Part shown: positions 24,915-28,469 of the stretch, piece after piece
Numbering within the stretch: the stretch's first letter is position 1
How the letters are laid out: each line of letters begins with the position of its first letter
Origin: Alphaproteobacteria bacterium
GTDB lineage: Bacteria; Pseudomonadota; Alphaproteobacteria; Bin95
Direction of reading: 5' to 3'
Length of the DNA: 64,000 nucleotides
Assembly (NCBI GenBank): GCA_964291285.2
Contig: OZ219786.1
Location: 1,120,001-1,184,000, forward strand
Translations under genes and position numbers: made by a program
Notes under the pieces: generated by a model
The model's input: the letters and a program-made list of their open reading frames with translations, nothing else
The model's database searches: none
What the model was told of the DNA's origin: nothing

Positions 24915-25192
24915 CGTGTCATGGAATGTCATGTTTTGTCATGTTCCGGGGGCGGAATGTCATGTTCTGTCACGGTCCGGTCTGCGCTCCGGTCGCCTGG
25001 GTTGCTTCGGATCGTTCGTTCCCGGGGCATCTCGGCCTCCTTTCCGTTGCCGGTTTCCACCGCCGGTTCGTCCCTTGCGGCGGGACCCTAGTTTCGCGCG
25101 TATCGCGCCCGCCTGTCCGCGCGCGTCGCCGCCGGCGCGGTTCGCGCGCCTGATTGCGCCCGTGCGCGCGACGCGGGCGCACAGGCGCACCT
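24915..25192 (-). repeat. Dispersed intergenic element, copy C, distal part (interrupted by IS110)
   Basis: Minus strand: GCGCAATCAGGCGCGCGAACCGCGCCGGCG, GATACGCGCGAAACTAGGGTCCCGCCGC, CATGACAAAACATGACATTCCATGACA; close match to copy D. Confidence 0.82.
24929..25030 (-). CDS. Putative 33-aa peptide inside repeat copy C (MPRERTIRSNPGDRSADRTVTEHDIPPPEHDKT)
   Basis: AAGGAGG Shine-Dalgarno 5 nt before ATG; same EHDKT-stop ending as the copy D ORF. Confidence 0.35.
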   Translation of the reverse strand: MPRERTIRSNPGDRSADRTVTEHDIPPPEHDKT

Positions 25193-25408
25193 TGTATCTC
25201 TCCGGATCGTTGTTGCAGCTATAGTCGCAACAGCGGGAGCGGACGGGAGACCGCTAGCCCGACTTCCGCAACTCGGCTTGAGAATCGACTGATTTGACGG
25301 TTTTCCGGCGCGAGAAGTGTCGGATTTCGGTGCAGTACCTCTCGGGACCGGCTTGTAGTGCCGACCTACCCCCTTGATCGGGCTGGCGAAGATCCGGACG
25401 CTGCGCTG

Positions 25409-27157
25409 ATGTTCGTGCGCTGCAAGAGACGCTTCAAGGACGGCAAGGAGCACCGCTACTGGAGCGTTGTGGAGAACGTCCGGGTCCACGGCGGTCGGGT
25501 TGTTCAGCGTCAGGTGCTCTATCTCGGGGAGATCAACGACAGCCAGCGAGCGGCGTGGTGCCGCTCGATCGAGGTGGTGGAGGGCAAGTCGCGATCACGG
25601 CAGATGGCGCTGTTTCCCGAGGACCGGGAGGCGCCGGCGCTGACTTGCGAAGTGGTGAAGATCGACCTCTCGCAGGTGGCGCTTCACGACCCGCGCCAGT
25701 GGGGGGCGTGCTGGCTGGCGCTGTCCTTGTGGGACCGCCTGGACCTGGACCGCTTCTGGGAAGAGCGGCTGCCGGCGAGCCGGCAAGGCACGCGGTGGCT
25801 GGACATCCTGAAGATCCAGGTCTGCTACCGGCTGATCGACCCGGGCAGCGAGTGGCGCCTTCACCGTCACTGGTATGAGCACAGCGCGCTTCGCGATCTT
25901 CTGGGTGGCGAGCGGGCGATCGCCGACGACACACTCTATCGCTGTCTCGACAAGCTGCTGGCGCACAAGCAGGGCTTCTTCTCGTTTCTGCGCGACCGCT
26001 GGGCGACGCTGTTCGAGGCGCGCTTCGACGTGCTGCTCTACGACCTGACCTCGACCTACTTCGAGAGCGATCCGCCGTTCGATGACAAGCGCCGCTTCGG
26101 CTACAGCCGGGACAAGCGGCCCGACTGCGTGCAGGTGGTGATCGCCCTGATCGTTACGCCGCAGGGCTTTCCGCTGGCCTATGAGGTGATGCCGGGCAAC
26201 ACCTCCGACGACACCACGCTGGCGGCGTTCCTCAAGAAGATCGAGGATCAGTATGGCCGCTCCGAGCGGGTGTGGATCATGGACCGCGGCATCCCCACCG
26301 AGGAGACGCTGGCCGCGATGCGCGAGGGCGAGGCGCCGGTGCGCTACCTGGTGGGCACGCCCAAGGGCCGGCTGACGCGGCTCGAGAAGGTGTTCCTGGG
26401 CCTGCCCTGGCAGGAGGTGCGCCAGTCCGTGACTGTCAAGCTTCTGGTCGAGGATGGCGAGCTCTACGTCCTGGTGCGCAGCGAGGGGCGGCAGGTGAAG
26501 GAACGCGGCATGCGCCGGCGCCGGCTGAAGAGGCTGTGGCGTCGATTGGCCGAGTTGCAAGGGCAGTCGAACAGCCGGGATCAGTTGTTGCTCAAGCTCG
26601 GCGCCGCCAGGAAGGAGGCCGGCCGGGCCTGGAGCCTGGTCGACATCACCGTGCCCGGGACCGACAGCGAACTCGCCGCCAACGGCTTCTCATTCCGCCT
26701 GCAGCGCGACCGGCTGCGCCAGGTCCGCCGCCGCGAGGGCCGTTACCTGCTGCGATCCAACATGGTCGCCGAAGACCCCGCCACGCTGTGGCATCTGTAC
26801 ATGCAGCTCGTCGAGATCGAGCAGGCGTTCAAGGAACTCAAGCACGACCTCGCGATCCGCCCCATCTTCCATCAGCGCCAAGAGCGCATCGAGGCGCATA
26901 TCTTCGTCTCGTTCATCGCCTACTGCCTGCTGGTGACCCTGAAGAACCTCGCCCGGCCGCGCGCCCCGGGCCTCACCCCACGCGCCATCCTTGAGGCCTT
27001 CGCCACCATCCAGATGGTGGACGTCCATCTGCCAACCACCGACGGCCGGCACCTCGTCCTGCCGCGCCACACCCGGCCGAACAAGGAGCACGAGCTACTG
27101 CTGCAACAGCTCGGCATGACCTGGCCGCAGCAACCCGCACCCCGGATCTCCGCCTGA
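25409..27157 (+). CDS. IS1634 family DDE transposase
   Basis: LYDLTSTYFE, FGYSRDKRPD, IMDRG, IEQAFKELK, RIEAHIF. Confidence 0.93.
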   Translation: MFVRCKRRFKDGKEHRYWSVVENVRVHGGRVVQRQVLYLGEINDSQRAAWCRSIEVVEGKSRSRQMALFPEDREAPALTCEVVKIDLSQVALHDPRQWGACWLALSLWDRLDLDRFWEERLPASRQGTRWLDILKIQVCYRLIDPGSEWRLHRHWYEHSALRDLLGGERAIADDTLYRCLDKLLAHKQGFFSFLRDRWATLFEARFDVLLYDLTSTYFESDPPFDDKRRFGYSRDKRPDCVQVVIALIVTPQGFPLAYEVMPGNTSDDTTLAAFLKKIEDQYGRSERVWIMDRGIPTEETLAAMREGEAPVRYLVGTPKGRLTRLEKVFLGLPWQEVRQSVTVKLLVEDGELYVLVRSEGRQVKERGMRRRRLKRLWRRLAELQGQSNSRDQLLLKLGAARKEAGRAWSLVDITVPGTDSELAANGFSFRLQRDRLRQVRRREGRYLLRSNMVAEDPATLWHLYMQLVEIEQAFKELKHDLAIRPIFHQRQERIEAHIFVSFIAYCLLVTLKNLARPRAPGLTPRAILEAFATIQMVDVHLPTTDGRHLVLPRHTRPNKEHELLLQQLGMTWPQQPAPRISA

Positions 27158-27237
27158 CGGCACACGGCGCCGCCTCTCCGTTCGCCGCCTTGTAGTGCCG
27201 ACCCTCGGGGAGACGATCAAGGCTATTCAATGAGTTA

Positions 27238-27369
27238 TACCAACGGTCGTTGATTGGAACCTATAGCAGAGCCTCCCTCCGCAGCTCGCCCCCTGAGCCG
27301 AGGCCTCCTACTGCAAGAGGTAATCTCCGCCGAGAGAGGCTAATCGGTTCTTATCTGTGGCCGGTGGTA
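27238..27369. mobile_element. 132-bp MITE, copy 1
   Basis: Ends TACCAACGGTC and GGCCGGTGGTA, TTA on both sides; the empty site GAGTTAGCATCC is present in IS1634 copy 2. Confidence 0.9.
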
Positions 27370-27519
27370 TTAGCATCCTCATGACCCCCGAGTTGCGGAA
27401 GTCGGGCTAGCACCCAGGTTATGAAGACCGCGGGAGAGCATGGTTCCCCGTCCGCTGTTCCTTTGAACCCGAACAGTCGCTTGGTCCGCAGTGTGAGACC
27501 GCATTTGCAAGGACGGGAC

Positions 27520-28452
27520 ATGGAACGGATATTCGTTGGCATCGACGTGGCGAAGGATCGTCTGGACGTGCATCTGCGCCCGTCCGGGGAGGCCTTTGCC
27601 GTCGCGCGCGACGGCAAAGGCCTGGAAGAGTTGTCGGCGCGCCTGGGCGGGCTGGAGGTTGCCCTCGTGGTGCTGGAGGCGACGGGCGGCTTCGAGGTCA
27701 CGGTCGCGGCGGCGCTCTGCGCGGCGGGCCTGCCATTGGCGGTGGTCAACCCGCGCCAGATCCGGGACTTCGCCCGCGCCACCGGCCGGCTCGCCAAGAC
27801 CGACGCCCTCGATGCGGCGGCGATCGCACAGTTCGCCGAGGCGGTCCATCCCGAGCCCCGTCCGGTGCCTGACGAGCAGGCCCGCGCGCTCGCCGAGCTG
27901 GTCGCCCGGCGGCGCCAGATCGTCGCGATGATGACCGCGGAGAGAAACCGCAGGAGGCGCCTCACAAGCCGTCGCACGATCCGCAGCGTCGACCGCGTGC
28001 TCGCCACCCTGCAACGCGAACTCTCCGACCTCGAAACCGAGCTCGGCGATGCGATCCGCAAATCCCCCGCATGGCGCCAGGCCGAGGACCTCCTCAAAAG
28101 CGTTCCCGGGGTCGGTGACGCCACCGCACGAACCCTGATCGCCGATCTCCCCGAACTCGGAACCCTCAGCCGAAGGCGCATCGCCGCGCTCGTCGGCGTC
28201 GCGCCCTTCAACCGCGACAGCGGAACCATGCGCGGAAAGAGAACCATATGGGGAGGACGCGCCAACGTCCGCGCAACCCTCTACATGGCTGCCCTCACCG
28301 CCTCCAGGCATAACCCAACCCTCAAACGCTTCTATCGCCACCTGATCGCGGAGGGAAAAACCAAAAAGGCTGCCCTCACCGCCGTCACACGAAAGCTCCT
28401 CACAATCCTCAACGCTATCCTCAGAGACCGAACCCCGTGGAAAACAGCTTGA
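27520..28452 (+). CDS. IS110 family transposase (DEDD RuvC plus Tnp serine)
   Basis: GIDVAKD, VLEATG, KTDALDA, SVPGVG, PFNRDSG. Confidence 0.95.
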
Positions 28453-28469
28453 CCGACAACACAGTCGCT

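Follow-up and report, generated by a model that had tools for sequence, protein, structure and literature searches.

The window analysed here, a stretch of 64,000 nt from the 6.1-Mb, five-contig genome (G000) of a high-G+C alphaproteobacterium, contains at positions 25191 to 28469 an insertion sequence of the IS110 family that is itself interrupted by a second mobile element. Coordinates are window positions unless prefixed C1 to C5, which refer to the contigs of the host genome. The element comprises 1126 bp of its own sequence, divided between element positions 67 and 68 by a 2149-bp insertion of the IS1634 family (25258-27406), and is identical to nine intact 1126-bp copies in the same genome. 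Its outline is given by the following features.

25191..28469, plus strand: IS110-family element, 1126 bp of its own sequence plus the nested insertion
25191-25192 and 28468-28469, plus strand: CT core copies bounding the element, read from the sequence
25195..25200, plus strand: TATCTC, predicted -10 half of a promoter at the circle junction; position conserved in homologues as judged by eye, function assigned by analogy to IS621
27520..28452, plus strand: recombinase open reading frame (ORF), 310 aa, with DEDD RuvC-like and serine Tnp domains
28449..28454, plus strand: TTGACC, predicted -35 half of the same promoter, overlapping the recombinase stop codon; TTGAC conserved in homologues

The element is flanked by GGCGCAC (25184-25190) and CT on the left and by CT and CTCCTG (28470-28475) on the right, and comparison of its ends, CTTGTATC... 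and ...ACAGTCGCT, revealed no terminal inverted repeats. Noncoding sequence amounts to 176 nt before the ATG at the left end and 17 nt past the stop codon at the right end. The encoded recombinase carries the Pfam domains PF01548 (3.4e-24) and PF02371 (4.2e-20) and belongs to NCBIfam NF033542, 'IS110 family RNA-guided transposase', with 222.9 bits against a cut-off of 140. It aligns end to end with the IS621 recombinase (PDB 8wt6; E = 1.5e-38, 136 bits), with its residues D9, E53, D95, D98, and S234 falling on D11, E60, D102, D105, and S241, the catalytic residues of IS621 as named by Hiraizumi et al. (2024). In combination with the RNA, guide, and insertion-site evidence described below, these features indicate, with a probability of roughly 0.9, that the element is an IS110-subgroup insertion sequence moving by bridge-RNA-guided recombination in the manner of IS621.

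The bridge RNA of IS621, 177 nt in length, has been described by Hiraizumi et al. (2024) as a 5′ stem-loop followed by a target-binding loop (stem, guide, stem-loop, guide) and a similarly built donor-binding loop. For the present element, the uninterrupted RNA gene was taken from the intact copy C2:876819-877944 (locus L081) and not from a mended window copy. The initial annotation of this DNA had removed the IS1634-family element in silico, a step that is justified by the nine intact copies, all of which read exactly as reconstructed. The minimum-free-energy fold of the 176 nt 5′ of the ATG in the intact copy consists of a 5′ hairpin and two internal loops enclosed by stems, with the parts and predicted guides located as follows in the window.

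25208..25235, plus strand: 5′ stem-loop of the bridge RNA (element positions 18-45), from the minimum-free-energy fold and per-sequence folds
25238..25252, plus strand: target-loop outer stem, 5′ strand (positions 48-62), pairing with positions 99-113
27410..27414, plus strand: left target guide, effective part GCACC (positions 67-71), same sense as top-strand GCAC-C; placed from 12 left flanks and homologue tracking
27417..27429, plus strand: target-loop inner hairpin (positions 74-86), helix 3, with 100% of cells paired
27430..27438, plus strand: right target guide GCGGGAGAG (positions 87-95, GCGGGAG-AG), complementary to CT-CTCCCGC
27442..27456, plus strand: target-loop outer stem, 3′ strand (positions 99-113)
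27468..27517, plus strand: donor-binding loop, its outer stem formed by 27468-27471 with 27514-27517 (positions 125-128 with 171-174)
27473-27481, plus strand: left donor guide ACAGTCGCT (positions 130-138, ACAGTCG-CT), equal to the last 9 nt of the element (9/9)
27482-27501, plus strand: donor-loop inner hairpin (positions 139-158)
27506-27511, plus strand: right donor guide TGCAAG (positions 163-168), pairing with CT-TGTA with one G:T wobble

Conservation of this fold was assessed in the best 80 of 378 confirmed relatives (588 pattern matches), the recombinases of which are 61-93% identical. Both element ends were placed in 74 of the 80 loci, mostly 1126 bp apart, and 59 of 63 left ends (62 distinct homologue sequences and the reference) were aligned, with L052, L064, L067, and L079 omitted (191-275 nt); the mean column identity between the reference and the homologue left ends was 68%. 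RNAalifold on the 59 left ends yielded 27 pairs, 14 of them with compensatory changes. In a 39-pair model applied to the same alignment, 85.3% of cells were paired, compared with 35-45% when the partners were slid by one to three columns, 26 pairs had changed on both sides, and none of 500 shuffles reached any of the five measures. Pairing amounted to 95.8% of cells in the target-loop outer stem, where 12 of 14 pairs were compensatory, and to 92-97% in donor-loop helices 4-6. The two-internal-loop fold envisaged in the initial annotation was thus recovered. A search of Rfam 15 with the window region and the intact L081 gave no plus-strand match and no bridge-RNA family, its hits being at chance level. 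A sub-threshold match to the Xanthomonadaceae small RNA sX15 (28.1 bits against a gathering score of 55, E = 0.045) was seen at positions 335-449 of L081 on the minus strand, opposite to the bridge RNA; it may be due to chance, or the sX15 family may be related to IS110-type left ends.

Guides were assigned by the pairing rules of Durrant et al. (2024) and Hiraizumi et al. (2024), according to which the 3′-side guide is complementary to the top strand over 4-7 nt and both guides include the core. The strings quoted in the initial annotation are all present (ACAGTCGCTTG at 27473-27483, TGCAAG at 27506-27511, GCGGGAGAG at 27430-27438, and GCACCC at 27410-27415), and the fold, covariation, and guide tracking place the loops, guides, CT core, and promoter halves of an IS621-type architecture where it had put them. 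Its 11/11 donor match stands as a 9-nt guide (7 nt plus the CT core), while the last two nucleotides belong to the inner stem and vary among homologues with a constant donor. In shuffles of the single sequence, a donor match of 11 nt was reached by 2 of 5000, and this is the one guide match that exceeds chance on its own. The wobble positions of the right target guide coincide with the site positions that vary between C and T. The single-sequence target matches are within the range of chance, and it takes the 13 insertion sites and the homologues to make the target loop significant. The reading of this loop in the initial annotation, including the shortness of its left guide (effective match 5 nt), was right, but the window by itself was not enough to establish it.

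The genome contains 13 right ends and 12 left ends of the element, all 100% identical, corresponding to nine intact copies (1126 bp), three interrupted copies, and one copy without a left end. Among the 12 readable left flanks, C occupies position -1 in 12, A position -2 in 11, C position -3 in 11, and G or A position -4 in 8 and 3, respectively, so that AC is found in 11 and CAC in 10. All 13 right flanks read CTCC at +1 to +4, followed by C (8) or T (5) at +5, G at +6 in 10, and C or T at +7 in 10. The target is thus an 11-12-nt motif, RCAC-CT-CTCCYG(Y), common to the 13 insertions. CT is found at both junctions of the copies, with no non-CT core in the 12 readable left junctions. In two homologue loci, L011 and L059, the left junction reads TT instead of CT, where a CT-core donor may have inserted into a TT-core target or a later mutation may have occurred.

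Each target guide was compared with its own flank. After collapsing duplicate pairs and leaving out loci without a readable flank, the left target guide agreed with its own flank at 4.16 of 7 non-core positions, compared with 2.62 for other flanks (68 distinct pairs), and the right target guide at 5.04 of 7, compared with 2.66 for cross pairs (47 distinct pairs). In a permutation test with one site per distinct guide (47 left, 32 right), 0 of 10000 permutations reached the observed means for either guide. The recombinases of L001 and L002 share 93% identity with the reference, yet the target guides of these loci are different and their sites read CCGGC.-CT-CCCCCG. On the donor side, left guide and right end have the same 7-mer in 58 of 59 distinct elements, with ACAGTCG in 36, ACGGTCG in 13, and ACAGCCG in 9. 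Finally, C96 (27439) is invariant and G169 nearly invariant in the homologues, each directly after a core-binding AG; by analogy with Hiraizumi et al. (2024), these are candidate handshake bases that could pair with an invariant G preceding the donor core and a near-invariant C preceding the target core, respectively.

A sign of recent mobility is seen at L081 (C2:876519-878244). In the public sequencing run X2, a contig at the depth of the single-copy flanks (123) joins L081 position 300 to 1425; 1124 bases are skipped and 2 letters shared, as predicted for an empty site with one CT. This joint fixes the element boundaries and makes the L081 insertion polymorphic. Runs X1 and X2 carry the same organism label and belong to the same study. 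At L081 the element interior is covered about 13 times as deeply as its single-copy flank in X1 and about 4 times as deeply in X2. Such depth does not equal copy number; the difference could mean a recent burst of transposition and is taken as a hint only.

Several observations weigh against the bridge-RNA interpretation. Scored as columns of the joint alignment, the 5′ hairpin helix is only 50% paired; this low score is ascribed to misalignment because the sequences fold there individually, the 5′ region forming on its own a single hairpin of at least 7 bp in 57 of 59 homologues. The left target guide pairs over just 5 nt (GCAC and the first core base), and its position 72 (27415) is a C that mismatches the core T opposite, whereas IS621 is reported to prefer full core pairing. 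Left guide matches as short as this, 4-6 nt beside the core, are usual in the homologue clade, where left guides also commonly have C as their second core-facing base (20 of 59 donor guides read CC). The test of the donor guide is not fully independent, because right ends were placed via this guide with at most one mismatch; the exact 7-mer match is not forced by that search, and element lengths cluster at 1126. In the shuffles of the single sequence, the 6-nt right donor match was reached by 2777 of 5000 and the 7-nt target matches by 911 and 1191 of 5000. As for the polymorphism, the X1 flank contigs, representing the occupied state, enter the element by only 23 and 15 letters, below the bridge threshold of 31, and X1 may derive from the same sample as the genome assembly.

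Based on these data, the following cycle is proposed. The element would excise as a circle in which its right and left ends are joined across the CT core, thereby bringing TTGACC and TATCTC 17 nt apart as a predicted sigma-70-type promoter. The arrangement TTGACC-N17-TATCTC given in the initial annotation does assemble at the predicted junction (28449-28454 with 25195-25200), with a weak -10 half (C at the last position), and of 52 distinct right ends among the homologues, 50 have TTGAC at the corresponding position. Transcription would start at about element position 17 and yield an RNA of about 160 nt, bearing the 5′ hairpin and two internal loops. In a complex with the recombinase, the donor loop would hold the circle junction and the target loop the chromosomal site, and the DEDD/Ser enzyme would then exchange strands at the CT core. 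In the window copy, an IS1634-family element landed in the sole CTAG, inside the left target guide. The 13 identical copies and the difference between X1 and X2 are only indirect signs of the putative RNA-dependent recombination.

The window copy lies in a dispersed repeat of the host, which the initial annotation had considered to be the landing site against which the bridge RNA is programmed. The relevant features are listed below.

24900..25190, plus strand: left arm of the host repeat copy, from flank BLAST and family alignment, ending in the left target half GGCGCAC (25184-25190)
28470..28560, plus strand: right arm of the host repeat copy, matching a family variant at C3:2018554 and starting with the right target half CTCCTGT (28470-28476)
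62822..62833, minus strand: unoccupied near-cognate site GCACCCCTCCCG, GCAC-CC-CTCCCG, in another family copy, with the core CC and not CT

The repeat unit is about 430 bp long and G+C-rich. With a 180-bp core probe, 102 places were detected in the genome, and 60 of them cover the position equivalent to the target. Among these 60 copies the left four nucleotides are GCAC in 53 and the right six are CTCCCG or CTCCTG in 40, and the non-core guide positions match the family consensus GCAC-nT-CTCCCG-Y. The core of the 60 unoccupied copies is GT in 27, TT in 14, CT in 11, CC in 3, and other in 5. RCAC and CTCCYG surround a GT or TT core in 30 copies, and only 3 are exact targets; the unoccupied GCACCCCTCCCG cited in the initial annotation was confirmed at 62833-62822 of the minus strand. 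Family copies account for five of the 13 insertions, the window copy among them, and the other eight are in unrelated sequence sharing only the short motif, so a large majority in one repeat, as in IS621 or ISPpu10, was not found. The idea of a guide programmed against the repeat hence holds in that the guides fit the family consensus and five insertions fall within it, and fails in that eight lie elsewhere and few family copies offer a CT core; likewise, the flanks of the other copies, proposed as a check, have one short motif in common, with the repeat family in just 5 of 13. For the non-family insertion at C1:260075, the left flank gave 65 matches, most likely from an IS1634 copy about 100 bp leftward, and the immediate flank is unlike the family.

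The repeat family is older and more widespread than the IS110 element. Of 12 genomes of the same genus that were searched, 10 contain it, compared with 0 of 8 from other families, while the full-length element was found among the searched genomes only in G007 (91% identity) and G011 (82%). The sequence CACCTCTCCYG is not enriched genome-wide, with 12 unoccupied sites compared with about 13 expected from composition, and exact-motif sites are occupied in 5 of 8 cases inside the family and 4 of 13 outside it (Fisher p = 0.20). Family copies with a GT or TT core are apparently unused, because the left junction would keep the target core in at least some products, yet 12 of 12 read CT. Given the eight insertions outside the family, the few CT cores, the lack of motif enrichment, and the lack of a significant occupancy bias, the recogniser reads the motif, with the repeat just supplying copies of it. 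A more elaborate proposal, tentative and on the whole improbable, combines a target loop tuned to the consensus of a genus-wide repeat of about 100 copies, the use of which is gated by the CT core, with a repeat that would slowly renew its stock of safe sites; the family context might be preferred in addition. Such gating could in part be due to the C that the left guide has as its second core-facing base, and repeat copies with a GT or TT core would, if this were true, be one base change away from a landing site.

Some further properties of the repeat were observed. Additional copies are located at about 5400-5570 (minus strand), 16849-16965, and 62822-62932 (minus strand), and at L082. The left arm contains short TGTCATG-type repeats (about 24915-24975); to the right of the IS110 target, a hairpin followed by a T-run is present in many copies. 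No Rfam match was obtained for the family, and RNAalifold of 60 copies gave only weak consensus folds on both strands. A near-consensus promoter to the right of the L081 target was considered as a family feature and rejected, as it was present in 3 of 60 copies and none was found in the window. IS1634 copies often adjoin the family at its CTAG/CTAA, about 100 nt left of the IS110 target (for example at C3:831662, C3:685819, C2:676622, C1:257951, and window positions 25086-25095), so that the repeat serves two unrelated element families as an insertion hub.

Three other explanations of the data were weighed. Site choice by the protein alone, with the left-end fold acting as a 5′ leader or regulatory RNA and the guide matches as a by-product of terminal conservation, would be compatible with a donor side that is nearly invariant in the clade, where conservation could produce the donor-guide match, and with single-sequence target matches that do not exceed chance. 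It is nevertheless very improbable: target guides co-vary with their flanks over 47 left and 32 right distinct guides (0 of 10000 permutations), the near-identical recombinases of L001, L002, and the reference are found at different sites, the three donor variants change in step in guide and right end (58 of 59), and the RNA of IS621 is reported to be necessary for recombination in vitro. Still less credible is an origin of the 13 copies by segmental duplication or homologous recombination together with their flanks, in which shared flanks would reflect common descent. Five flanks are indeed mutually homologous as family copies, and the copy at C2:1294678 is clearly rearranged between IS1634 copies, but eight sites have unrelated flanks with the motif alone in common, the five family flanks are not alike, with identities of 77-94% to the query copy, and an exact empty site exists in run X2.

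A third explanation, which would supplement guided recognition, is that the repeat family context or DNA hairpins take part in recognition, with family copies preferred beyond the 11-12-nt motif as in the structure-gated ISPpu10, for which a target-side DNA stem-loop has been reported as a requirement. In its favor, a family making up well under 1% of the genome received 5 of 13 insertions, exact-motif occupancy is 5 of 8 inside compared with 4 of 13 outside, and the guides match the family consensus outside the core. This difference in occupancy is not significant (p = 0.20), however, and eight of the 13 insertions lie outside the family, at least three of them seemingly in long open frames (stop-free frames being uninformative at 68% G+C). 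The consensus fold of the 60 copies is weak, and GT/TT-core copies with the full context are unused, all 12 left junctions being CT; an influence of family context is accordingly judged unlikely. Recognition of the short motif by a bridge RNA therefore remains the preferred interpretation.

The second mobile element at the locus interrupts the RNA gene of the window copy and comprises the following features.

25258..27406, plus strand: IS1634-family insertion of 2149 bp, bounded by perfect 19-bp terminal inverted repeats and a CTAG duplication
25358-27157, plus strand: IS1634-family transposase ORF, 599 aa (NF033559, 305 bits; Pfam DDE_Tnp_1)
25254..25257, plus strand: CTAG, the first 4 nt of the left target guide and target-site duplication of the IS1634-family element, with the second copy at 27407-27410

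To the left of the insertion stand the predicted promoter -10 half, the 5′ hairpin, the 5′ strand of the stem, and four bases of the left target guide, all cut off from the remaining RNA gene and the recombinase gene, while the ends, the donor loop, and the recombinase ORF are untouched. Because the RNA gene is cut inside the left target guide, the window copy cannot make an intact target loop; as judged from its sequence, it is disabled in cis, having neither an intact bridge RNA nor drive from its own junction promoter. Bridge RNA has been found to work in trans (Durrant et al., 2024), and Hiraizumi et al. (2024) suggested that the two loops of one complex may come from different RNA molecules. 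It is therefore plausible that the nine intact identical copies could still mobilise the window copy in trans.

About 60 other copies of the IS1634-family element are present in the genome. The copies have CTAG or CTAA at their flanks, and CTAG appears to be the preferred target; this tetranucleotide is present once in the IS110 element and is rare genome-wide (0.185 per kb). Four IS110 copies contain a foreign element (window 25254-27410, L083 at C3:1703378-1708049, L084 at C3:1141028-1143613, and L085 at C2:1294678-1300400), in all four cases at element positions 47-77, corresponding to target-binding-loop DNA, and in none within the 933-bp ORF. Two of the four have an IS1634-family element at the single CTAG, another has an IS256-family element (346 bits) after position 55 with a 9-bp duplication, and another an IS1595-family element with an extra 788-aa ORF after position 77. 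The CTAG preference accounts for two of these target-loop insertions, and the other two may be due to chance. The copy at C2:1294678, the second composite of IS110 and IS1634, has lost its left end by recombination between IS1634 copies.

Additional layers of insertion were noted. A MITE-like insert of about 132 bp lies at about 27238-27369 inside the nested IS1634 copy; this sequence has about 25 solo copies in the genome (86-100% identity) and is also found in at least three other IS1634 copies. Within the MITE part of the IS1634 copy in C2:1294678, a repeated element of 1936 bp (C2:1295885-1297820) with 41 BLAST matches in the genome was found. The genome is heavily loaded with nested insertion sequences. 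Partial matches to the IS110-recombinase model at C2:1200311-1201141, C4:271227-271700, C5:3464-3937, and C1:66139-66453, together with a 73-nt fragment at C1:7920-7992 that has 81% identity to the target-loop region, resemble remains of further IS110-family elements.

The element represents one well-documented natural pair of bridge recombinase and guide RNA from a high-G+C alphaproteobacterium, with 13 natural sites mapped and a sign of recent mobility from the insertion polymorphism. The pair had been put forward as new in the initial annotation, which applies only in the sense of one more orthologue. Its approximately 59 relatives, combining a near-identical donor with many different target guides, are raw material for the engineering of bridge recombinases. 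For genome annotation, the element accounts for one class of identical repeats, and the published model is confirmed and not changed.

Among known systems, IS621 of Escherichia coli (PDB 8wt6) is the closest in organization. Both elements encode a DEDD RuvC-like and serine Tnp recombinase, with all five catalytic residues aligned, and their left ends contain a noncoding RNA of nearly equal length (177 nt in IS621; 176 nt precede the ATG here) with the same order of 5′ stem-loop, target loop, and donor loop and with guides overlapping a CT core. Natural targets that include a dispersed repeat are a further common point, and the promoter split across the circle junction of IS621 would have a counterpart in the one predicted here. 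The two differ in that the proteins are only distantly related (136 bits). The target guides of IS621 measure 4 nt on the right and 9 nt on the left, whereas the right one is 7-9 nt long here and the left one effectively 5 nt, with a C opposite the second core base. Furthermore, 144 of 173 experimental insertions of IS621 were in repetitive extragenic palindromic (REP) elements, compared with 5 of 13 natural insertions in the repeat here, and the present element comes from an alphaproteobacterium of high G+C content.

ISPpu10 and ISPpu9 of Pseudomonas putida are likewise described as IS110 members with a bridge RNA, located in repeated intergenic sequence (REP or conserved). ISPpu10 has been reported to lack the 5′ stem-loop, to need a hairpin in the target DNA, and to have all its insertions in one conserved sequence, whereas the element described here possesses a 5′ stem-loop and has most of its insertions outside the repeat. 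The ISCro4 recombinase (PDB 9t56), compared by protein sequence alone, is the second-best relative of solved structure (E = 2e-38, residues 3-307). Members of the IS1111 subgroup share the recombinase family and a guide RNA with target and donor loops, but are described as carrying this RNA in the right end and having sub-terminal inverted repeats of 7-17 bp, in contrast to the left-end RNA found here. Durrant et al. (2024) predicted bridge RNAs for 85.7% of the elements of the IS110 group, in most cases in the left end, and noted right target guides that exceed that of IS621 in length. Taken together, the element fits the published bridge-RNA model and departs from it in small features only, namely a long right guide, a short and mismatched left guide, and a minority of insertions in the repeat.

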